The notes under the pieces: generated by a model
Told to the model about the DNA's origin: nothing
Seen by the model: the letters and a program-made list of their open reading frames with translations, nothing else
Databases searched by the model: none
Source: Patescibacteria group bacterium
GTDB lineage: Bacteria; Patescibacteriota; Patescibacteriia; JAXHNJ01
Direction: 5' to 3'
Assembly (NCBI GenBank): GCA_043812155.1
Contig: JBDRMK010000017.1
Coordinates: 77,824 to 141,823, forward strand
DNA length: 64,000 nt
Made by a program: the position numbers and the translations under genes
Shown here: positions 5,008-58,300 of the stretch, in pieces
How the letters are laid out: every line of letters begins with the position of its first letter
Position numbering within the stretch: position 1 is the stretch's first letter

Positions 5008-5949
5008 TTATAAAGTAGTTATCGGTCTTGATTGAGTGATATAAAATTTATTTTTGTGCAATGCCCATTCAATATCCTGCGGATGATGGTAATGCTTTTC
5101 AATAAGTTTGCAGATTTTCGCCAGTTCGACAATTTGCCGGCCGGCCAATTTCTGCTGATGGCCTTTTTTGCCCTTAATTTTTATTTTTACCGTACCGCTC
5201 TTTTTCTTCCGGATAATTTTTTCATTCTGCTCGGCCACGTTAATATCCACCAGATAATTATCTTTTTTATCAATTACATATGTGTCCGGCGTCACCTGGC
5301 CGGAAACAATCGCCTCCCCTTGGCCCAAGACCGCTTCAATAACCATCTGATTTTTGTCTTTGGAAACCGGATGCACAGTGAAAGCCACGCCGGAAACTTC
5401 TGAATCAATCATCTTCTGAATAACCACGGCCACCGCCACCTTCTGCTTATGCAATTTCTTTTCATAACGGTAGAAAATGGCCCGGGGCGTGAACATGGAA
5501 GACCAGCATTTTTTCACGGCCGCCAAAAGATTTGGCTGATTGACAAATAAATAAGATTCCAGCTCTCCGGCCCAGGAAGCGATTTTAGAATCCTCGGCCG
5601 TGGCGCTTGATCTTACCGCCACATAAGGTGATTTTAATTTTTTAAAGGCCGCCAAAATCGGTTTTTTAAGATCCTCGGGCATTTTTTTCTTGGCAGAAAC
5701 AGCCCGGATCTCATTGGAGGCGCGGTCAACCGAATTTACATCCTTATAATTGACATTGGAAATACGAGCCTCAATTTCAATATCCAAATCGCTTTCGGCT
5801 AAGAATTTATCAAAGGCGGAAGCCAAAATAACGAAACCGTCAGGCACAGGGAAACCGTGAGCGGCCATTTCTCCCAGAGAAGCGCCTTTGCCGCCGGCTT
5901 CTTTGACATTTTTTTTGCTTATTTTGGCAAAAGGGATGACAAAATTCAT
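5008..5949 (-). CDS. Stand-alone PEP-utilising enzyme N-terminal (pyruvate phosphate dikinase / PEP synthase PEP/pyruvate-binding, ATP-grasp) domain protein.
   Basis: GGKGASLGEM motif and the general pattern of the PPDK/PpsA N-terminal nucleotide-binding domain. No phosphohistidine or TIM-barrel domains follow. Start probably at MNFVIPFAK. Confidence 0.65.
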   Translation of the reverse strand: MNFVIPFAKISKKNVKEAGGKGASLGEMAAHGFPVPDGFVILASAFDKFLAESDLDIEIEARISNVNYKDVNSVDRASNEIRAVSAKKKMPEDLKKPILAAFKKLKSPYVAVRSSATAEDSKIASWAGELESYLFVNQPNLLAAVKKCWSSMFTPRAIFYRYEKKLHKQKVAVAVVIQKMIDSEVSGVAFTVHPVSKDKNQMVIEAVLGQGEAIVSGQVTPDTYVIDKKDNYLVDINVAEQNEKIIRKKKSGTVKIKIKGKKGHQQKLAGRQIVELAKICKLIEKHYHHPQDIEWALHKNKFYITQSRPITTL

Positions 5950-6050: not shown

Positions 6051-6848
6051 CTAATAAAGTCTAATATTTAGTACTTTCGGTATTTCCTCTATCAAATCAC
6101 CGGCGTTATAATAGACGCCGACCTTTTTATACAAATTATCACCGGCCAGACCGTTTATCAAGACTCCTACCTGGCCGGCCAAAAATAAATCGTTTTTACA
6201 GGCCAAGGCCGCCACAAGACCGGATAAGACATCGCCCGTCCCGCCTTTGGTCATGCCTTCATTGCCTGTCGTATTTATAAAACATTCTTTAAGCGAGCAG
6301 ACATAATCATTTTTACCTTTCAAAACTATATAACAGCAGCAATTTTTTGCCATCCTGGCGCAATTTTCCGGGCTGGCTTTGATACCGAATAATTTTTCAA
6401 ATTCGCCAGGGTGAGGGGTGACTAAACAATTTGTATTCAATAATTTTTTATCTGCCATTTTTAAGGCGTCGGCGTCCAACACGAATTTTTTGTCTTTATA
6501 ATTTATCAATAATGAATTGAGTGCTTTTTTATTTTCTGACGACACGCCCCAACCCGGACCGATCAAAATTACGTCTGATTTTTTTACCGTATCATTTAAT
6601 TCATTGCTATTAATCGTGATAAAGGCCGGGCTATTCTTTTTAATTTCCCGCATTAATTTCATACTACCTGAGACTGAATAGAAATATATCAGATCGACTA
6701 TTTTAGAAGCGATTTCAATCGCGTACCACGGGGCTCCATGATATTTTTCTGACCCGGCGATAATCAATAAAACGCCGTTTTCGCCTTTGCGGGAATTTTT
6801 CGGCGGGTGGTATAAATGTTTTAAAATTGATCGGGTGATTTTTTTCAT
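6051..6848 (-). CDS. nnrD: ADP/ATP-dependent NAD(P)H-hydrate dehydratase (YjeF C-terminal / carbohydrate-kinase-like family).
   Basis: KGENGVLLIIAGSEKYHGAPWYA N-terminal motif and GTGDVLSGLVAALA C-terminal motif. Confidence 0.75.
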   Translation of the reverse strand: MKKITRSILKHLYHPPKNSRKGENGVLLIIAGSEKYHGAPWYAIEIASKIVDLIYFYSVSGSMKLMREIKKNSPAFITINSNELNDTVKKSDVILIGPGWGVSSENKKALNSLLINYKDKKFVLDADALKMADKKLLNTNCLVTPHPGEFEKLFGIKASPENCARMAKNCCCYIVLKGKNDYVCSLKECFINTTGNEGMTKGGTGDVLSGLVAALACKNDLFLAGQVGVLINGLAGDNLYKKVGVYYNAGDLIEEIPKVLNIRLY

Positions 6849-7013
6849 AAATTTACACGTGTCGAGCGGGGGCTCGACAGGTACCCGGAAAAAAGGAGTT
6901 TGTTGAGCGAGGGCTTGACACTACCCTAGAGGGTAAACGTGTGATAAGCGACGGCTCGATAATATTTTCTTCTTTCTGGCGGGTAGGTCGGAGCCCCTGC
7001 TCCGACCTTTCGC
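6849..7013. repeat. Cluster of REP-like palindromic elements downstream of the RAYT gene.
   Basis: Hairpins gtcgagc-ggggg-ctcgac and ggtcggagc-ccct-gctccgacc. A GGGTAGG (GTAG-containing) head is shared with two intragenic copies. Direct repeats acgtgtcgagcgg / acgtgtgataagcgacgg. Confidence 0.5.
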
Positions 7014-7709
7014 TCATAATTCATCAATTTTTATCAAAGCATGATCATTAAATTCATAATTTCGGTACGACGACCACGGGTAATCTTCAGGATTCTTAAC
7101 CAGTTTAGCTTTGACGGGATTATGATGGATGTAATACAATTTTTGCTCCAATTTCTTTTCGGAGTAAATATTGAAATCGTAAAAATCTGGCATCCATATT
7201 GAATATTTTCTTGTTTTTTCTTTATTTTCCCTCGGGTAGGCCGAATCCTCGGATTTGGCAGAAAGACGTGTCCGATCTAAGGATCGAACTTTACCCGTTA
7301 GCGGGTAGGCCGAATCCTTGGATTCGGCCGGAAGGCAGGCCCGATCTGAGGATCGGACGGTACCCAACGTAGCGGGATAATCAAAAATTTTTCCCGTTAC
7401 AGAAAACTTCTTGAGTAAATCGGTCTTTTTATCCTTTAATAATTGCTGTACTATCTGTATGCTTGAAAATTTTTTAAAATCCCGCATTACTCTGGAAATA
7501 TCATTGTATTTATCATTTAACTGAATTAATAGATGGACATGGTTCGGCATAATGACAAAACCAAGCAACTTATAGGAAAATTTATTGCAATAGAATATTA
7601 GATTGTCAATGATAATACGGCATAATTTATCCTCTTGAAAAAGCGCTATTTTGTTAAAAGTGTGAACGGTAACAAAATGAACCGTATTTTCAATATTGTA
7701 TTTCTTCAT
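7014..7709 (-). CDS. REP-associated tyrosine transposase (RAYT, IS200/IS605 TnpA-like Y1 transposase) with an in-frame insertion of two REP-like units.
   Basis: HUH motif MPNHVHLL and C-terminal DYPWSSYRNY catalytic Tyr region. The central segment RSSDRACLPAESKDSAYPLTGKV / RSLDRTRLSAKSEDSAYP is encoded by tandem GGGTAGGCCGAATCC hairpin repeats. Confidence 0.75.
   Translation of the reverse strand: MKKYNIENTVHFVTVHTFNKIALFQEDKLCRIIIDNLIFYCNKFSYKLLGFVIMPNHVHLLIQLNDKYNDISRVMRDFKKFSSIQIVQQLLKDKKTDLLKKFSVTGKIFDYPATLGTVRSSDRACLPAESKDSAYPLTGKVRSLDRTRLSAKSEDSAYPRENKEKTRKYSIWMPDFYDFNIYSEKKLEQKLYYIHHNPVKAKLVKNPEDYPWSSYRNYEFNDHALIKIDEL
7200..7385. repeat. Two tandem REP-like hairpin units (GGGTAGGCCGAATCC(T/C)(C/T)GGATT(T/C)GGC followed by CCGATCT(A/G)AGGATCG) embedded in frame in the RAYT coding sequence.
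   Basis: Direct reading of two near-identical ~70-bp units, each with two short hairpins. They share the GCGGGTAGG head with the element at 6978-7000. Confidence 0.55.
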
Positions 7710-8011
7710 GGCAAACTCATGATGATTTGCTGTATCCGCTCCGCCTCTTGCCTAACTATCTCCGTGTCGTATTCCCCGGCGTGCATGCTTGTCCCCGAAT
7801 AAGAGGGCCTCTTGGCGTCAAAATGCAAATTCAAGATCAGCTCTTCGCGGCTGTCCTTATTAACATAAATGTGAAATTTGGGAAATTCGCTTCGACCGGC
7901 CCGGCGGGCAAAACCCGGCTCGCCTTTATTGTCGCCGGAATAATGATAGCCACATTTGCGCAAAAGCGTTAAAGTATTTTCGGAAAAATTTTTCGCGATT
8001 ATAAGCCTCAT
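7706..8011 (-). CDS. Hypothetical protein, 101 aa, translationally coupled to the RAYT gene.
   Basis: 4-bp ATGA overlap with the RAYT gene. No recognisable motif. Confidence 0.4.
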   Translation of the reverse strand: MRLIIAKNFSENTLTLLRKCGYHYSGDNKGEPGFARRAGRSEFPKFHIYVNKDSREELILNLHFDAKRPSYSGTSMHAGEYDTEIVRQEAERIQQIIMSLP

Positions 8012-8233
8012 AATGACTATATTCTAGCGCTTTTTCCAAATATTTTCAAACCCAAAAATCCGGTACCTTTAAACGGATGTTCCGGCTATCCCAAATTGTC
8101 ATGCTGAGGCTGTCGTGAGCTTGCGAACGACACTCGAAGCATAGACAATGTGCCCATTTACAAGCGTCACCCTTCGAGGCCCAGCCTGCCCTGAGTGGCA
8201 ACGAAGGACGCCTCAGGGTGACAATATATTTTA
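8012..8233. repeat. Highly structured intergenic element with nested hairpins. It shares a ~14-mer (agcctgccctgag / ctcagggcaggct) and cccttcg with the element at 54228-54275.
   Basis: Stems atgct...agcat, gtcgt...acgac and a 13-bp bulged stem gtcaccct(tc)gaggc...gcctcagggtgac, followed by a T-rich tract on the plus strand. Confidence 0.35.
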
Positions 8234-9682
8234 TTACTCCATCACCAAACTTCCGTCATCATTAAGGTTCACCATCGCCCATTCAACCTGGCTGGTACCG
8301 ATATTATAATAGACCAAGCCAAGGTATGAATCCTGCTTTAAAGCGCGGAAAATATTTTCCAGTTGCCAGGCGACATAGGCCGATTGATCTCCTTCCGGCA
8401 GAATCCGGCTAAGCACGAATTTTAGGAATATTTTCAAGTATATGGAGTCTTCTTTGTTTTGGCGGAAATTATCGGCTAAAACCTTGGGATCAACGCCGGG
8501 CTTTTGTTTTATTAGAATTGGGAATATTTCTTTTTCAAAAATTTCCTGGACAAAAGGGTCTGAAATGATATTTTTCAATTCCCCTGTCCGGGCCAGAATA
8601 ATAAGGCAGGCGGCGGCGACATTCGGCTCTTTATCGCGGTAAGCGTCAAAAAAATAATTTTTCAGCTTTTCAAACTCGCCTTTTGAAGCGCTAACAATAT
8701 TACTTTCTTCGGCGCTAATTTGCTTTAAAAGAGGTTCGTTTTCCGCCGCTGTTTTATTAAGCTTTTCCCGAATAGAGTCCGTTTCCGAGAGTTTATCTTC
8801 TTTTACTCCTTCTTCTTCTTTAACGGTAGGCTTAGTAGATACGGGAGTAGGAGTAAAAGAAGATAATGATTCCTCTTTTTGGCCGCCGAGGTTAAGTGAG
8901 GCTAAAGCTTTTTCCCTAACGGCTATAATAGTATTAATTTTATTCTCGTCAAATTTCAACGGCTGGAAGACGCCGCCGATAATATTACCCTGATGTCCTT
9001 CATCGTCTATGGGAATAGCCTCCTCCAATCCTTCAAGCGTCAAAGAAGAAAGTTTTAATTTTTCATAAAATTTAATTACCTGCTCAACTTTCTTTTTGTC
9101 TTCCGGCGGCAGACTCTTAGTGTTCGTATCGGTAAAAAGATATTCCGTCACTTTGATCAAGGAAATAACTTCGTTGCCCAAAATTGACCGATAGGCAAGA
9201 ATCCAGTTACCGACCGTGGGGGGCAAAAGACGGCCATTGACTTCAATGTCTTTTTGGGTGAGTTTTTCGGCATTTCTCTCTAAAGCCTCTTTGACTCTTT
9301 TTTTAAATTCATCGCGTATATCCAATGGGAAAATAAACAATAGGCGGGCACGGAAACTATCTTCTAAATAATAATCAGACATGGAAAAAATCGCCGTCAG
9401 ATGCTTTCCAAACATTTCCACCACGTCATCTTCTTTTAGGAGACTTAAGGCGACCCAAGAAGCCCGGACGATCATTTCCCGCACTTTCTCGTAAATATCC
9501 GGGTAATCCAAGACAAACGACGGGTAATCTTTAAAAGCCTGGGTAAGATTGGCGGCAAACAGAAGCGCGTCTTCGGTCTGGCTAAAAGTAATAATCTCCT
9601 CAAGCTTCCGGGCAAGTTTCTGCGAGAAAGCTGGAACCGTTAGTTTTTCGACGATTAATTTGGTGTCCGCGTTGATAATCAT
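8234..9682 (-). CDS. Hypothetical protein, 482 aa, last gene of the giant-protein operon.
   Basis: 4-bp overlap with the upstream membrane-protein gene. No recognisable motif. Confidence 0.5.
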   Translation of the reverse strand: MIINADTKLIVEKLTVPAFSQKLARKLEEIITFSQTEDALLFAANLTQAFKDYPSFVLDYPDIYEKVREMIVRASWVALSLLKEDDVVEMFGKHLTAIFSMSDYYLEDSFRARLLFIFPLDIRDEFKKRVKEALERNAEKLTQKDIEVNGRLLPPTVGNWILAYRSILGNEVISLIKVTEYLFTDTNTKSLPPEDKKKVEQVIKFYEKLKLSSLTLEGLEEAIPIDDEGHQGNIIGGVFQPLKFDENKINTIIAVREKALASLNLGGQKEESLSSFTPTPVSTKPTVKEEEGVKEDKLSETDSIREKLNKTAAENEPLLKQISAEESNIVSASKGEFEKLKNYFFDAYRDKEPNVAAACLIILARTGELKNIISDPFVQEIFEKEIFPILIKQKPGVDPKVLADNFRQNKEDSIYLKIFLKFVLSRILPEGDQSAYVAWQLENIFRALKQDSYLGLVYYNIGTSQVEWAMVNLNDDGSLVME

Positions 9683-15800: not shown

Positions 15801-17423
15801 ATATTTAGTGAAATTAGTCCATTTTTTTATATCATAGTTGTAACTCGTATCCTCAAAATCATAATTTTTAATCCTTACTTTTTCGCCTACTTCTGTCATG
15901 GCCGACCAGGGATAATAGCCCCTGACCAAGGGACTGCCGGCCTGATACTGCCAGTCAAGACCGGCGATAACCGAACCGGAAAGCCATTTTAACTGGTTGA
16001 TCTCATCCGGGGTGCGGTAGGTCATTTCCTCCTGGGGCAGATCAACATAGCTTGAGCATTGGTTTGATTTGTTCAATGAAGTGCAGGCGGTCAAATTCAA
16101 GCAAAGCTCTTCCGTTTGATTGGTTTTTGGATCTTTTTGTTCGATACCCGTGTTGCAGGTCAGCCACTTGGCGCATTCCCGGTCTTTTTTCACTTTTAAA
16201 ATGACGTTGGCGTCGCAGCGCGGATAAGTGCCGTAGCAGCCGGCCAGGGCCGGACTATTAAAAAGACCGTCGTCCTCGCACCGCGCCTGGCCGGAGCAAG
16301 TGCCGGGCTGGCAATCGCTATCCACGGCGCAGGCCTGGCCGTCGTTCGGTCCGCCGACGCAAACCGGGCAATCAGCGTCAGTCACGCAAGAAACAGCCGA
16401 ATTGCTGGCGCAGCTCCGGTAGCAATCAACGCGGTTGCACTGGTAAGGATCGCCGGTAAGACCCGGGTCCTGGGAACAGACTCCGCCCGGCTGGCAGGTC
16501 TGGCCGGAAGCGCAGATGAAACCGCAGTGCTCACAGTTGGAAACCAAGGTGGCTGTGCCCACGTCGCAATACAATCCGGTTGGCGAGCATTCGCCGATGG
16601 GGATATTGCCGTCGCACTGGCCGGTGGTAAAGACCCGGTCGCCGCCCGAAGAAGTGACAAAAGAAAATTCGCCGCTTTGAGAGGAATTGCCGGCTTCGTC
16701 AAAAGCCTGCACCCGGTAAAAATAAGTGGCGCCAGGCACCAAAGCCAAGGCCGTGGCCGGAGGCAAATGCAAAGTATGGACCACGATATAAGGGCCGGCG
16801 TTGTCATTGGCCCGGTTTTCCAGAGGCAAATAAGCGTCAAAGTTCGGCGAGGAAGTGGCGCCGTAGGCGATGGCCACATGGGCTTCTTCGCTGGTATAAA
16901 TTTCGACATCGGCATCGGTGTCATTAGCTCCCACCCGGATAAATGTAATAAAGGGAGCGTCTTTGTCCGCGCTGCCGCCCGGAGTGACAAAAGGCCGGTC
17001 GACGCTTGTTTTTTCTTCGCCTTTATCCGTTTTGGAAACGACCTGATAATGATAAGTGGTATTGGCTTTCAAGCCGCCGATGGAAACGCGGTGAGTTTTT
17101 ACATAATCCGCCTGATGGCAGGTATCGCAGGTGAAATCATTATAATTAGTGTCGGTTCCTATTCTCACCGTAGAATCCGCTAAAAGATTGGTGTCCCAAA
17201 CAATGGTCACGGAAGTTGAGGTCAAAGAGCTTAGATGAATATTGGTAATATAAAGAGAGGTGGTCTGGGCGCGGGCTGACGGAATGGGAAAGACCATAGC
17301 GCTCTTAAGCTGGGTAAAAGAAAAATTTACAGACCAGGCGGAAAAGACCAAGGCAAAAACAAAACTCAAGGCGAAAAACGCCATTTTCGGCCGGAGTTTA
17401 AATTTTTCTTTCATTTTTATCAT
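12840..17423 (-). CDS. Giant secreted cysteine-rich protein, 1527 aa (signal peptide, FN3/PAP-N-like and PKD-like domains, EGF-like Cys repeats).
   Basis: N-terminal hydrophobic signal. Motifs VTIVWDTN...TTYHYQV (FN3-like) and WIDWGDGARDS...FTHTYN (PKD-like). Many CxxC-rich stretches. Confidence 0.7.
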   Translation of the reverse strand: MIKMKEKFKLRPKMAFFALSFVFALVFSAWSVNFSFTQLKSAMVFPIPSARAQTTSLYITNIHLSSLTSTSVTIVWDTNLLADSTVRIGTDTNYNDFTCDTCHQADYVKTHRVSIGGLKANTTYHYQVVSKTDKGEEKTSVDRPFVTPGGSADKDAPFITFIRVGANDTDADVEIYTSEEAHVAIAYGATSSPNFDAYLPLENRANDNAGPYIVVHTLHLPPATALALVPGATYFYRVQAFDEAGNSSQSGEFSFVTSSGGDRVFTTGQCDGNIPIGECSPTGLYCDVGTATLVSNCEHCGFICASGQTCQPGGVCSQDPGLTGDPYQCNRVDCYRSCASNSAVSCVTDADCPVCVGGPNDGQACAVDSDCQPGTCSGQARCEDDGLFNSPALAGCYGTYPRCDANVILKVKKDRECAKWLTCNTGIEQKDPKTNQTEELCLNLTACTSLNKSNQCSSYVDLPQEEMTYRTPDEINQLKWLSGSVIAGLDWQYQAGSPLVRGYYPWSAMTEVGEKVRIKNYDFEDTSYNYDIKKWTNFTKYPNVATNPTTIEIVEDPAAKDKKSNYVLKIGDMDSLNQGVRVQASGDTSVSSKYAVNLKIKSENSDPQKVRFSLNSGGNNPKVSVLGTYTLTSGWQYITTPAAPGVGGAYTYLDIYAVEGSAQPFYVDEIKIEPVLQVGAGVFLNRSCRLYPQEDAPSCEYYDSNGIYQRGWRGYCLQRDPDNESLCLSWWPVDILYGESNLFGAEETAGYSGRTPLYYCAESLGVLGAQKPQVYCQDIPANGTVWQSWSGGNYYCASDNSNEECHENCDLNGSAFCYGVHDGSHMIKYFIYGDGSPAQCGHLRYYTASTPGKDYSKYLLKDNTIKVTASYTFDHSSNANGAFEFNAANNWSGWVSEGTCSAENKQLLLSQDWADPNSLANSCGRGINGICCPNSFNFAGGIQLQFNSIGGFDKAVMIMKDDNDLLGGNAVFYISRLTFYPKEFCTKLVEVVTEGGENAAWAGKINSSGYKVPQLNYSLTTDFTPYGGAVTEGGDPAVWPTLSAEEADTYNFPESPFQVRAGKSYACVGDCSKRICWGGGNKDGVACLNNIDCLGQYPDTTVAQGVCIGVGSCARKNPAGAAVSCVMDSDCVQNTSPPVDFGPCAGGAGSYRGSQTINMWPYLNTTLPIWWCLNPTTLGDETALTSQAACEGAGYVWNNRKRYYCFDRLHGKDLLRITKASCEAVDAYHVWTNEPAELFAELNIRALFTRSYGIYEWQTSGPFVNTYQLVSGSNAELQERFVPVWGPPVTVCPSSVRPAYDPLNENTFCAYAPVVKNIKLGDGSSTTVRLGRDGGKVRLSFNSRVDTEQQPLRTIWIDWGDGARDSPAAGYKSKDDPNNPHIFTHTYNGTNCHNSEGCTYNIHILLEDNWGWCSANPKRGTMYDSVCHNGNKNPAYLEGAGSNEGGWCNPAGNLNCIGGTCPLIYDGIDNAFTCANNLIQNWAPVDTCRPIYNSAGGVAVSASCSDGVCSGGMDNGRPCGQLIVELK

Positions 17424-43810: not shown

Positions 43811-44611
43811 ATTATTTTGTTTAATTTTTAATATATATTTAAATTAGTAGTGGTCTAAAATAAAAAAACCACAAAATTAGTGGTTATCTAAACCCTCCCT
43901 TGTTCCATCCCTCCCCTGTTTTATTAAACTTTTTGTTTTTTGCATGAAGAAAAGTTGAAAAAACCTCTCTTTTAGCTAAATTTTTTTGTTTTCTTACTTT
44001 ATTATACACCTATATTTCTATTTTGTCAACCGTAAACGGCTTAGATTACTGTATTTTCAACAATATGTGATAATTTTTTAAATAAACGAAAAGGCGCATG
44101 TGATCACCTTAAAACTAAGTTGCTTAAGAGGCGACATGCGCCTTAATGGGGTTTATTATCCAATTTTATCCCGCCGTTAGCCGGCTCCCTGCACTATTTC
44201 CCAGAGGACCGCGTAGCGGCAGAATAAAATATGATGATGTAGCCCCAACTTTCTCTTTGTTTCTGGAGTCAAAAAGATCAATATATCTCAACCATTCTTC
44301 CGGTATAATCTCTGGTTTTAAGGCCAAAAATCTACCTTTTTGTTTTTGTGTTACAAATTTTTTCAAACGGGTGTCCAGAAAACACCCATGACGAATAGTT
44401 GAGAAGGGCCTTTTCCCAAATTTAGCTAATATTAGGGAAAAACCCTTCTCAGCTGATATTATTGTCAAACTTACACCAATAGTATATCAGACTATCTATG
44501 TATTGTCAAGTACGCTCAAAAATTAAAAAATTAGCTTAAACTAGCTAAAATATCCTGTGGATAAAATTCTATATATTTAATATAAATATAAAAATTATAA
44601 TTTGGCTAATA
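43811..44611. promoter_or_regulatory. Unusually long (800-bp) AT-rich intergenic region with multiple palindromes. Probably holds the promoter of the FG-GAP gene and possibly an uncharacterised RNA.
   Basis: 11-bp perfect inverted repeat aaggcgcatgt...acatgcgcctt (~44094-44147). ~16-bp imperfect palindrome 44401-44450. GCTAATATTAGC palindromes at ~44424 and 44604. No convincing ORF. Confidence 0.3.
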
Positions 44612-45169
44612 TTAGCCTAATCTATTTTTTATATATTTAAATATTTTTTGGTATTCTTCTTCCTTGGAAAATGAAGTAGTATCAAGGAAAAAATCAAAAT
44701 TGTCCGGATTAAACACATCAATCCCGTATATTTCACGATACCGTTTTTCATCGCTTTTCATCCGTTCACGGTTTATCTGGAGAACATCCTCTACATTCGT
44801 CACCTGTCTGGCTTCATTCCTCATGCTGTTGATTTTAAAATCTTCAAAAACTCTTTTTGCCCCGATATTTTCGTCAACATCCAAAAATATTTTTAAGGAT
44901 TGGGGAATGAAATGGTAAGCGGTCCGACCTTCAATAACCAAATTGTCCTCTCTTTTTCCGATCTCAGACAATTGTTTGTCAACTTCTTTATCAATAGAAT
45001 GATCTTTCTCCCCTAATTTCAGATATTCAACCAAAGTCAGATTCTTCTTTTTGGAAGCGGCCCGAAAAATATCGCCCATGTAATACCTTTTATAGCCTAA
45101 GTCTTGGGCCAGTCTTTTGGCGATCGTTGACTTGCCGCTTCCGGGTTTTCCCGAAATGGAAATTATCAT
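44612..45169 (-). CDS. cmk: Cytidylate kinase-like P-loop kinase.
   Basis: P-loop ISGKPGSGKSTIAKRLA and ~185-aa length consistent with short-form CMP kinases. Confidence 0.6.
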   Translation of the reverse strand: MIISISGKPGSGKSTIAKRLAQDLGYKRYYMGDIFRAASKKKNLTLVEYLKLGEKDHSIDKEVDKQLSEIGKREDNLVIEGRTAYHFIPQSLKIFLDVDENIGAKRVFEDFKINSMRNEARQVTNVEDVLQINRERMKSDEKRYREIYGIDVFNPDNFDFFLDTTSFSKEEEYQKIFKYIKNRLG

Positions 45170-55399: not shown

Positions 55400-58300
55400 T
55401 CAGTTTCGTTCGCACCACTGCCTGGCGTTCTGGAACATCATAAGCCAGGGAGAAGCCTGGAGTTTTCCTCTCCAGTCTTCCGGCAGCCAGGGCCACTGCC
55501 AGGCCAAGAAAACGCGTTCCGGGTGCGGCATGATAGCCAGGTGCCGGCCATCGCCGGAACAAAGAGCAGCGATCCCGTTTCTGGAGCCGTTCGGGTTATA
55601 CGGATACTGCTCCGTCGGCTGGCCGTCATCATCCACAAAGACCGCCGGAACCAAGCTATAAGCAGCCGCTCCTTCCAGGATTGCCGGATCGGGACAATAC
55701 AGACGCCCCTCGCCGTGGGCCACCCAAATTCCCAGAGTTGATCCCGCCATATTGTTAAGCATTATGGAAGGACTCCTGAGAATCTTAGCGGTCACCCAGC
55801 GGGATTCGAAGCGTTCCGACGAGTTGCGGATGAAGCGCGGCTGCTTTTCGCTAGGTATCCCTTCCCAGGGCACCCAGCCTAAAAGCACCTCCAGCTGACA
55901 GCCGTTGCAGACACCGAGGGAAAACGTATCCGGCCTTTGGCGGAAACGCTCGAACATCTCGCGGAGCCGGCCGTTGAACTTAATGCTGCCGGCCCAACCC
56001 TTGGCGCTGTCCAGCACATCCGCATATGAGAAACCGCCGACAAAGACGGCCCCCCGGCAAGCCTCAAGCGAGTAGTCGCCGTTCAAAAGGTCAGTCATGG
56101 TGACATCCACGGAATTGAATCCGGCCAGATAGAAAGCCGAAGTCATTTCCCGGTCACCGTTACTGCCTTCCTCCCGGATGATTGCCACTTCAGGCTTAAC
56201 CGTCCGAAGCAGAACTTCCGGCGCGGTTGCTTGCGGCTCAAAGGAAAGGTAATAGCGAGGACCTTTTCGGTCGTGCCGTCCGGCCTGATCCAAGGCAAAC
56301 TTGAGATTCATCTGATGTTTCTCAAGCTCGTCGCTGATTGACTCCCACCAGGAAAGAAGGGTGGGAAGTTCAAGATCAGGCACGACTTCACGACCCTGCC
56401 GCAAGCTTATCCGGCGTTCAATTGTCGTCTTGCCTAAATCGTAAACCGGAACACCGCATTCACCCAAGAGGCTTCTTATCTCGGCTTCGTTTTCGGGCAA
56501 AACTTCCAAGACCGCTCCCAGTTCTTCCGAAAACAAGGACTCTATGACAGTCCCGTTATACGGCACTTCCACTTTTATCCCACTGTTGCCGGCCAGGGCC
56601 ATTTCCACCAGAGTCGTGATGAGCCCGGCGTCACTGATATCATGGCCGGCCAAAATCAGATCTCGGTCGATCAGCTTTTGGACAGACAAGAAAGTGTTTT
56701 TCAGCAAAGCGGGATCATCAACATCCGGCGATTCGTTGCCGATCTGCTGGTGGATTTGTGCCAGGGCCGAACCGCCCAAACGATGTTTGCCCGGAGCCAT
56801 GGTCAAGAATAAAAGAGAACTTAGCCCGGGCCGCTTGATGTCCGGAGTGACCACCTTGGTAATGTCAGGCACAGTGACATAGGCGGAAATAACCAGCTGT
56901 CCCGGCGCTTTGACGGTTTCATCGCCGACCCTAGCCGCCATGGACAGACTGTCTTTACCTCCGTCTACCGCCATACCCAACTTAATCATCAGGTCACGCA
57001 TCGCCTCAGCCGCCGCGCGCATTTTGGCGCCTTCACCTGGCATCTTGCCAGCCCACATCCAATTGGCCGAACATTTGACGTCGGAAAGGGAGCTAATCCG
57101 GGCGAACATCAGATTGGTCAGGCATTCCGCCACGGCCATCCGAGCCCCGGCTTGCGGTGAAACCAGCATCTTAATCGGCTGCTCCCCGATAGCCGTGGCC
57201 GCGCCTGTCAGACCGAAATGGCTTTGGGCCACCACACTGACGTCGGAAACCGGAAGCTGCAAAGGACCGCAGCACTGCTGTCGGGCGACGAGGCCGGTCA
57301 CGCTCCGGTCAACCTTGCGCACCAGGTACCCTTTCGAACCGACTGAAGGCAGGCGAAAGACTTTCTGAAGAGCTTCCGCCACGGACAGATCAGCCGGAAG
57401 AGAAAGAGGAGCAAGCGCGAGAGGCACGGGATCGATCACGAAGGTTTTCTGCGGCATGTGACAGAGGATTTTGCCGAGATCAAGATCGACGGGCCGGGAA
57501 CCATCCTGGGAGTCTGAGACCGTAATGCGTCCATCGCCGGTGATTTCCCCCAAGATCTCGCAGTTGACTTTCTCACGGGTGCAGATCGCCTTGAATTCGT
57601 CTACCCGGTCGGGAAAAATCAGAAACGCGTCGCGCTCCTGGTATTCCGCTCCCCAGATTTCTAGGAAAGACATGGTCGCGTCACCCACCTGAATCTGGCG
57701 GATGTCTACGCGGCCGCCGGCCGGCTCCACGAGCTCGGTCAGGACGTTGCAGGGTCCGCCCGCGCCTTGATCGTGAGCGACTCGGATGGGATTTTTTTCT
57801 CCCATCTCGACGCAGGCCCGTACAACACGGTTAAGTTTCTGTTCCTCTTCCGCGTCGCCGCGCTGAACCGCGTTGAAATCCAGTTCGGCTTTGTTTTCCC
57901 CCTGAATCATACTGGAAGCCGAACCACCGCCCATGCCAATTCGGTAAGCCGGCCCGCCGACCTGAACGATAACCAGGCCAGGGGTTGGCTTGTCCTTTTT
58001 GATATGGCGGTCGTCAATCTGACCCACGCCGCCAGTGAACATGATTGGTTTGATCCATTCACGACGTTCACCGTCAGGCAGTCTCAGACCGAAAGTCCGG
58101 ACAAATCCCTGAGTAACCGGCTCGCCAAACTTATTCCCATAGTCAGAAGCACCATTGCTCTCTTCTATCAGGATGGTAAGCGGAGAAGCCAGATTGCTAG
58201 GATACTCGAAGTCCGGGTTTTCGCCGGGTATCGTGTAATCGGGAATATTGAGATTTCCCACGCAATAACCGGCGGTTCCCGCGATCACCAAGCCGCCCTG

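Follow-up and report, generated by a model that had tools for sequence, protein, structure and literature searches.

A 64,000-nucleotide stretch of DNA from a Patescibacteria group bacterium (assembly GCA_043812155.1, contig JBDRMK010000017.1, positions 77,824 to 141,823; hereafter the window) contains a gene for a REP-associated tyrosine transposase (RAYT) in which two tandem palindromic segments stand in frame near the middle of the coding sequence. The locus raises the question of whether repetitive extragenic palindromic (REP) hairpins have entered the gene of the very enzyme that would mobilise them and, if so, whether they are merely tolerated there or kept for a function. We consider it probable that the locus is a REPtron, that is, a single-copy, vertically inherited RAYT accompanied by its cognate REP hairpins, in which the doublets within the enzyme's own gene are tolerated as a disordered linker.

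The RAYT and its conserved core

The open reading frame (ORF) at 7014..7709 on the minus strand encodes a protein of 231 residues that is a RAYT, a TnpAREP-type Y1 HUH enzyme of class 2, as the first-pass annotation had proposed from its NHVHLL motif. The assignment comes from the ORF together with Pfam, NCBIfam and PDB matches: the protein matches Y1_Tnp in Pfam (2e-9) and reaches 114 bits with the NCBIfam equivalog NF047646 (REP_Tyr_transpos; cutoff 80), whereas with the IS200 transposase model NF033573 it scores 34 bits, below the cutoff of 55. Searched with a clade profile, the best solved relative by sequence is E. coli TnpAREP (PDB 4ER8, E 5e-16), and the same structure is the best fold match of the AlphaFold2 model in Foldseek (E 1.9e-8, target template modelling (TM) score 0.74), the core of the model having a predicted local distance difference test (pLDDT) score > 90. 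The HUH motif, H57-V-H59 within NHVHLL, is invariant in the homologue alignments, in which H57, H59 and Y193 are conserved. Y193 lies in YYIHHNP, a Y-x-x-x-N-P context, aligns with E. coli Y115, the residue altered in the catalytic mutant Y115F (PMC8266576), and is the catalytic tyrosine. The DYPWSSYRNY segment, which had been taken for the tyrosine region, is a conserved tail motif distinct from the catalytic site. W172, aligned with W94 of E. coli TnpAREP, is also conserved.

Relatives are labelled here by locus (L001, L002 and so on). Compared with L001, L002 and L086, the RAYT core has diverged at nonsynonymous sites by 0.09-0.19 (dN) and at synonymous sites by at least 1.4 (dS), with dN/dS of about 0.07; judged from these rates, the core is under strong purifying selection, and at such a ratio the gene is presumably functional. 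A pseudogene was rejected, the reading frame being intact and the core dN/dS this low. One RAYT copy is detectable within the window.

REP doublets in the reading frame

The two tandem hairpin repeats seen at first pass stand in frame, with the translation given for them then. REP doublet 1 (7303..7365, minus strand, 63 nt) spans codons 115-136 (LGTVRSSDRACLPAESKDSAYP) and REP doublet 2 (7234..7296, minus strand, 63 nt) spans codons 138-159 (TGKVRSLDRTRLSAKSEDSAYP), with a 6-nt spacer, GCTAAC on the coding strand, between them. A repeat search returned the same pair as 7233-7296 and 7302-7365, 69 nt (23 codons) apart and 81% identical. Each 63-nt unit is composed of two inverted hairpins with their feet outward, every GGGTAN foot standing 5′ of the hairpin on its own strand. 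Along the unit, GGGTA(C/A) and 1 nt precede the first hairpin, 13 nt separate it from the second, and CTACCC closes the unit; both hairpins have a stem of 8 bp and a loop of 4 nt. The coding strand of doublet 1 reads GGGTAC-c-GTCCGATC/ctca/GATCGGGC, the 13-nt spacer, and GCCGAATC/caag/GATTCGGC-CTACCC, its second hairpin being GGGTAG-GCCGAATC/cttg/GATTCGGC when read on the plus strand, and the feet of doublet 2 are GGGTAA (sense) and GGGTAG (antisense). The two stems of a doublet differ in sequence; each hairpin folds on its own and no single long hairpin is formed. The segment before unit 1 (TATCCCGCTACGTT) is similar to the junction between the units (TACCCGCTAAC).

Typical homologues have about 184 residues and do not have the insert, which falls between conserved blocks in the alignment; the two blocks are bridged by about 8 residues in E. 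coli TnpAREP versus about 90 here. In the AlphaFold2 model, the predicted helices 71-92 and 96-101 precede the insert, and the segment of low pLDDT, with residues 106-150 and 155-163 below 50, sits between the short helix 96-101, which follows alphaC, and the strand 177-181. The insert is thus modelled as a disordered surface loop of the protein. The first-pass annotation had proposed an alignment to family members as a check, and its outcome bears the proposal out: lying between conserved blocks and missing from the homologues of about 184 residues, the repeated segment is not a native conserved one, and its interpretation as inserted REP-type hairpins is supported.

Across the insert columns, the comparison with the same three relatives gives a dS of 0.3-0.7, resting on about 27 synonymous sites, and a dN/dS of 0.25-0.6. 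As far as these divergences can tell, the insert is looser as protein and tighter as DNA than the core, a pattern expected for hairpins that are kept by their structure or refreshed by gene conversion or re-insertion.

Hairpins 3′ of the gene

Between the RAYT gene and the NAD(P)H-hydrate dehydratase gene (Carb_kinase; 6051-6848, minus strand) lies a spacer of 165 nt (6849..7013) that holds three single units, designated a, d and e. Unit a (6981..7006, plus strand; GGGTAG-GTCGGAGC/ccct/GCTCCGAC) begins 8 nt past the RAYT stop codon, antisense to the gene, and is not found at the orthologous position in L001, L002 or L003. It had been described as a third copy of the internal repeat, which is correct as regards the GGGTAG foot and the 8-bp/4-nt architecture but not the stem sequence, which is not shared. 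Unit d (6901..6926, minus strand; GGGTAG-TGTCAAGC/cctc/GCTCAACA) is degenerate, with two A/A mismatches in its stem. Unit e (6860..6886, minus strand; GGGTAC-c-TGTCGAGC/cccc/GCTCGACA) accounts for the further palindrome already placed near 6858-6880 and is the orthologue of the lone intergenic GGGTAG REP in L002/L003. The stems of the REPs described here start with GCC, GTC, TGT, GCG or CGG.

The pattern GGGTAGGYCGRAKCC has three exact matches in the window, where 0.5 would be expected even allowing two mismatches, and a scan of the 64 kb for a foot plus hairpin gives six matches, all within 6879-7365, compared with about one in each shuffled window. Across the window, GC-rich hairpins with this foot are confined to 6860-7365. 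REPs with a 5′ GT[AG]G foot within about 1 kb are a mark of RAYT genes, and the six footed hairpins here lie inside the gene or 3′ of it. The exact pattern of hairpin A plus its foot had no match in the genome contigs, a collection without the source metagenome-assembled genome (MAG) and GCA_034520665.1, and matched only L086 in the metagenome contigs, which do not include L001 and L003, and thus says little on dispersal. Rfam contains no family for the REP repeats or for the neighbouring structured spacer.

Copy number at orthologous loci

The gene order of a 101-residue ORF, the RAYT and the dehydratase (Carb_kinase) is common to the window and to L001, L002 and L003, three loci from other assemblies. 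The RAYT keeps this position in three genomes that are saturated at synonymous sites, and it may be vertically inherited. The number of hairpins at this fixed position varies. L002 and L003 have one internal unit and one REP in the 3′ spacer; L001 has one internal unit and a part-deleted second (about 1.5 in all) and no spacer REP, its RAYT and dehydratase genes overlapping by 4 nt; and the window has two internal units and three spacer REPs. An orthologous unit of doublet 1 is found in L001, L002/3, L005 and L086, whereas doublet 2 is missing from L002/L003 and is the part-deleted one in L001. An assembly artefact was rejected, the same architecture being present in independent NCBI, JGI and ENA assemblies.

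In L086, where the gene order is LexA followed by the RAYT, the 63-nt unit occurs both in the ORF (851-913) and after the stop codon (1137-1199), the two copies being identical from GGGTAC to CTACCC and embedded in unrelated flanks. Judged from this identity, the 63-nt unit is a discrete element that was recently duplicated in L086. In the RAYT of L005 (GCA_034520665.1), a 149-nt segment made up of the REP doublet and 86 nt of coding sequence is tandemly triplicated (6337-6788), and this gene is a pseudogene because the triplication breaks the frame. A further copy of a RAYT fragment follows the stop codon in L005 (7020-7200). At 7967-8263 of the same locus, 2.4 tandem copies of a 123-nt unit duplicate the 5′ end of the gene for a Y-family DNA polymerase (IMS). 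Every unit bears a GC-rich hairpin, CCCCGCACC...GATGCGGG, that is unlike the RAYT REPs in type.

Footed hairpins in the wider clade

The homologue search of the genome contigs gave distant relatives only, at no more than 34% identity. Among the relatives examined, L004, whose RAYT is 52% identical and stands in another genomic context, has three footed hairpins inside the gene, at the site used in the window, whose stems are related and show compensated changes, and the clade member L088 has an internal doublet with unrelated stems (GCGAAAGC, CGGCGAGC). In L087 and L089, also members of the clade, the hairpins directly follow the HUH strand (beta3:alphaC), and in L087 the internal hairpins are repeated just 3′ of the gene. 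Two Dehalococcoidia loci, L006 and L008, have internal and flanking GGGTAG hairpins, and the Kerfeldbacteria locus L007 has an internal GGGTAG hairpin; the internal REP lies near residue 95 in L006-L008 and in L088. The apparently internal hairpins of L033 were rejected, being located after the stop codon.

In total, 35 footed units were collected from 11 RAYT loci, all of them in the gene or within 400 nt of it. When the 24 distinct units are aligned, the GGGTA foot and the 8/4/8 geometry are constant, and compensated double changes are seen at six of the eight stem positions; since the units were picked for pairing, their 100% pairing is uninformative and only this diversity counts. Seven hairpins have a G.T wobble, and every one of them is intact on its footed strand alone, be that the sense strand, as in some, or the antisense strand, as in others. 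The restriction of the wobbles to the footed strand points to selection on folded single-stranded DNA, not on mRNA, and an explanation by RNA structure was rejected, footed hairpins being kept on both strands and wobbles occurring on the antisense strand too.

Two further arrangements were observed around RAYT genes of other hosts. In L006, from a Dehalococcoidales MAG, the REP and RAYT unit stands between two copies of about 55 nt from the 5′ end of carB (5385-5437 and 6143-6195), which looks as though the unit had entered the beginning of carB and generated a long target duplication. In three Planctomycetota loci (L011, L025 and L051), whose RAYTs are distant relatives, the REPtron layout is the classical one: arrays of GGTGCGAGAATCCCTTCTCGCACC hairpins stand on both sides of the RAYT in opposite orientation, with none inside.

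Surroundings of the locus

The 101-residue ORF at 7706-8011 (minus strand) shares 4 nt with the start of the RAYT gene and matches nothing in Pfam or NCBIfam. It is not related to the LexA found ahead of the RAYT in L086 and L005; between the window and L001 it is 95% identical, the RAYT 79%. Upstream of this ORF, the GC-rich intergenic segment at 8046-8233 contains nested long hairpins, GTCATGCTGAGG...AGCATAGAC and GTCACCCTTCGAGGC...GCCTCAGGGTGAC, with a DNA fold z-score of -4.1, no Rfam match and no GGGTAG foot. At 8793-8866, within the 482-residue ORF at 8234-9682 (minus strand), two perfectly matching inverted arms of 18 bp (TTATCTTCTTTTACTCCT / AGGAGTAAAAGAAGATAA) enclose a loop of about 38 nt; this repeat gives weak miRNA-like Rfam matches on both strands and could be another in-frame palindromic insertion. 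Over the window as a whole, the G+C content ranges from 0.34 to 0.59 in 1-kb bins (0.57 at 16001-17000, 0.59 at 57001-58000 and 0.34 at 44001-45000). GC skew is negative in most of these bins, and the almost steady fall of the cumulative skew argues that neither a replication origin nor a terminus lies in the window.

Discussion

In the REPtron reading, the RAYT would be a TnpAREP-type Y1 HUH single-strand DNA endonuclease/ligase and the REPs its cognate hairpins, each with a GGGTA(G/C/A) foot immediately 5′ of its hairpin, whose stem measures 8 bp and whose loop measures 4 nt. The proposed mechanism is modelled on the TnpAREP enzymes of E. coli, S. maltophilia and Marinomonas (PMC8266576). 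As E. coli TnpAREP does, the enzyme would act at the replication fork, binding the hairpin that forms in single-stranded DNA; by analogy with the TnpAREPs of PMC8266576, it would then use the GTAG-type foot for recognition and for the choice of the cleavage site, cut at a nearby dinucleotide and rejoin the strands. GTAG had at first been described as the tetranucleotide of both recognition and cleavage; its role as a recognition or guide motif stands, but it is not the cleavage site, the studied RAYTs cutting at CT/CA dinucleotides beside the REP (PMC8266576). That the RAYT of the window recognises the foot is our assumption by analogy. Local copying would place REP units in a permissive loop of the gene and in the spacer next to it, and only frame-preserving, stop-free insertions would survive. 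By this route, a 63-nt two-REP unit may have entered the enzyme's own gene, where it is now present twice, and the spacer that directly follows the gene may have gained three further REPs. Translated as a disordered linker of about 46 residues, the insert would be tolerated because it is a multiple of three, free of stop codons and located in the loop that leads from alphaC (with its short extension) to beta4, and the protein that carries it probably stays active. Insertion and duplication would be local, either through a preference of the enzyme for the vicinity of its own gene or through slippage promoted by the hairpins; for the step from one to two copies, unequal exchange promoted by the hairpins may be equally possible.

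Several observations weigh against the REPtron reading. The feet of the internal units on the sense strand are GGGTAC and GGGTAA, not GTAG, and the residues with which E. coli TnpAREP contacts GTAG are not kept in the present protein, Q95 being replaced by M173 and R104 by Y182; the position of M173 is Q in most relatives, and that of Y182 is nearly invariant Y/F across the clade. Given the small number of synonymous sites, the lower dS of the insert may stem from gene conversion instead of selection. The first-pass annotation had tied its reading to further copies of the repeat elsewhere in the genome, and here the result is divided, with further hairpins in the 3′ spacer but no REP copy outside the RAYT locus in the 64-kb window; none was found farther out in the 6-12 kb around the relatives either, and the dispersal by which a REP family is usually recognised is not shown. 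Finally, classical REPtrons have REPs on both flanks, but in the window the 5′ side of the gene has none. The term REP accordingly denotes here REPtron-local hairpins, not a demonstrated dispersed family.

The persistence of the hairpins could also be read as function. The internal doublets might be maintained cis-elements beyond tolerated passengers, acting as an autoregulatory binding or cleavage site or as a protected 'master copy' by which enzyme and substrate stay linked where streamlining of the genome has left hardly any intergenic space, a proposal that in either version we regard as rather unlikely. In its favour, hairpins persist at the same site with compensatory stem changes between the window and L004 despite RAYTs only 52% identical, the synonymous divergence of the insert is two- to four-fold below that of the core, the G.T wobbles all lie on the footed strand, and the REPs are restricted to the RAYT locus in every genome fragment examined. 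Yet many members of the clade and all distant homologues have no internal REP or have it at other sites, the variable copy number and the frameshift of L005 by a repeat-associated duplication look like unregulated turnover, and repeated re-insertion or gene conversion can explain the conservation. A stronger version would see a self-contained minimal REPtron distinct from subclass 2.4, the published subclass of tnpAREP genes with in-frame REPs that is compared below. There, REPs would have collapsed onto the RAYT gene in streamlined Patescibacteria/Dehalococcoidia, with selection for the internal doublets, and this version has, in our estimate, a small chance of being correct. In that case the REPs would survive nowhere but in the RAYT ORF and the spacer directly 3′ of it, with the doublets as a linked master copy or an autoregulatory site; to this part we attach the same small chance.

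Two further explanations fare worse. Ordinary slippage duplication of a native, accidentally palindromic linker would account for the adjacent, head-to-tail arrangement of the units, and the resemblance of TATCCCGCTACGTT to TACCCGCTAAC fits unequal exchange as the source of the second copy. Slippage may explain the step from one copy to two but not the first copy, and the unit has the foot/8-bp/4-nt architecture of the intergenic hairpins; moreover, an identical unit stands outside the ORF in L086, related RAYTs have different REP sequences at three different sites, and the segment is missing from distant homologues, all of which makes this explanation very improbable. The gene and its hairpins might instead form an autonomous insertion sequence (IS) of the IS200/IS605 type, with the hairpins as its subterminal ends, as could be argued from the lineage-dependent context of the RAYT (LexA in L005/L086, sortase in L004, RmuC in L087) and from the duplicated carB 5′ end that flanks the REP and RAYT unit in L006. 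With a single copy in 64 kb, a position conserved in three genomes with saturated synonymous sites, 114 bits to the NCBIfam RAYT model against 34 bits to the IS200 model (cutoff 55), and neither a 5′ hairpin nor a tnpB in the window, an autonomous element is the least credible of the explanations and hardly to be expected.

Comparison with known systems

In-frame REP insertions in tnpAREP genes have been described for subclass 2.4 (Quentin, Siguier, Chandler, Fichant 2018, BMC Genomics 19:475, PMC6006769), which corresponds to group 4 of the Bertels RAYT classification. In that subclass, the insertions preserve the frame and occupy a variable region at the periphery, between HuH and Y, and they were called unique to the subclass (PMC6006769). 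The first-pass annotation had called the arrangement of the window unusual, which is a fair description, but the phenomenon is already published, in-frame REPs in tnpAREP genes having been described in PMC6006769. The window resembles subclass 2.4 in that REPs are inserted in frame, short DNA repeats explain the length heterogeneity of the proteins and further REPs flank the gene. REPs with feet at both ends are another shared feature, although the doublet here consists of two hairpins and not of one double-foot hairpin. The REPs of subclass 2.4 combine GTAG with GGGC...GCCC, that is, with three G-C pairs at the stem base, whereas the foot here is GGGTAG and the stems start with GCC, GTC or TGT; none of the window REPs shows the GTAGGGGC...GCCC stem base or the double-foot single hairpin. 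The site of insertion differs as well, being the beta3:alphaC loop in subclass 2.4 and alphaC:beta4 in the window, with the relatives L087 and L089 having theirs in beta3:alphaC. The conserved W94/Q95/R104 set of subclass 2.4 is only partly retained, W172 being kept and the other two positions being M173 and Y182. The motifs NH[IFV]H, WQ and YIxNNP of the subclass compare with NHVH, WM and YIHHNP in the window and with WQ and YIHNNP in orthologues and relatives, and these motifs also fit subclass 2.6. The survey of subclass 2.4 did not report Patescibacteria among the hosts (PMC6006769), and the host here is a member of the Patescibacteria.

Likeness to subclass 2.6 is seen in the SS-containing proximal tail (DYPWSSYRNY), in the R104 equivalent, which is not conserved, and in about 21 extra helical residues between alphaC and beta4, for which the present model has the predicted helices 71-92 and 96-101. 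Subclass 2.6 differs in its atypical, non-GTAG flanking structures and its Bacteroidetes hosts, as opposed to the GTAG foot and the patescibacterial host found here. Compared with the published descriptions of the subclasses, the gene does not obviously belong to subclass 2.4.

The best match by both sequence and fold is the E. coli REPtron (4ER8; Ton-Hoang 2012, PMC3333891; Messing 2012, PMC3479197; Corneloup 2021, PMC8266576), which shares with the window the HUH motif and single catalytic tyrosine, a GTAG-type foot 5′ of the hairpin, inverted pairs of REPs and a gene that, as far as the 64 kb of the window show, is single-copy. Unlike the hairpins of the window, E. coli REPs have a longer, bulged stem, exist in hundreds of copies and are extragenic, on both sides of the gene. 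The E. coli enzyme itself has 165 residues, with about 8 where the present protein has about 90.

Rickettsia palindromic elements are longer and are not known to be associated with RAYTs. Genes other than those of RAYTs have also been found to contain in-frame REPs, and REPtrons occur in some species that lack any REP family (Di Nocera 2013, PMC3733652, which cites the Rickettsia work). Such intragenic REPs and Rickettsia palindromic elements (PMC3733652) resemble the present inserts as in-frame palindromes that are translated as tolerated extra segments, but their host genes are unrelated, many of them acting in replication or repair, whereas the host gene here is that of the mobilising enzyme itself. 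The REPIN-RAYT systems (Bertels and Rainey 2011, PMC3116915) share the inverted REP pair as the replicating unit and a RAYT that is single-copy and vertically inherited, as the present one probably is. They differ in that the two REPs of a REPIN pair into one long hairpin, whereas the stems of the present doublets differ, and in forming populations of tens to hundreds, of which none is seen in the 64-kb window.

In the library of papers searched, none linked RAYTs with Patescibacteria. The locus extends in-frame REPs in tnpAREP genes to Patescibacteria and Dehalococcoidia, apparently beyond subclass 2.4, and provides a clean comparative example of REP turnover in and beside a RAYT gene. With REPs seemingly confined to the locus of the enzyme in a tiny genome, it also offers a simple setting for the questions of what a domesticated RAYT with hardly any substrates does and whether it prefers the vicinity of its own gene. 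Present views of the RAYT mechanism are left unchanged. With a different REP flavour, a different loop and a Patescibacteria/Dehalococcoidia clade, the gene described here is a new member, or a mild variant, of a published phenomenon.

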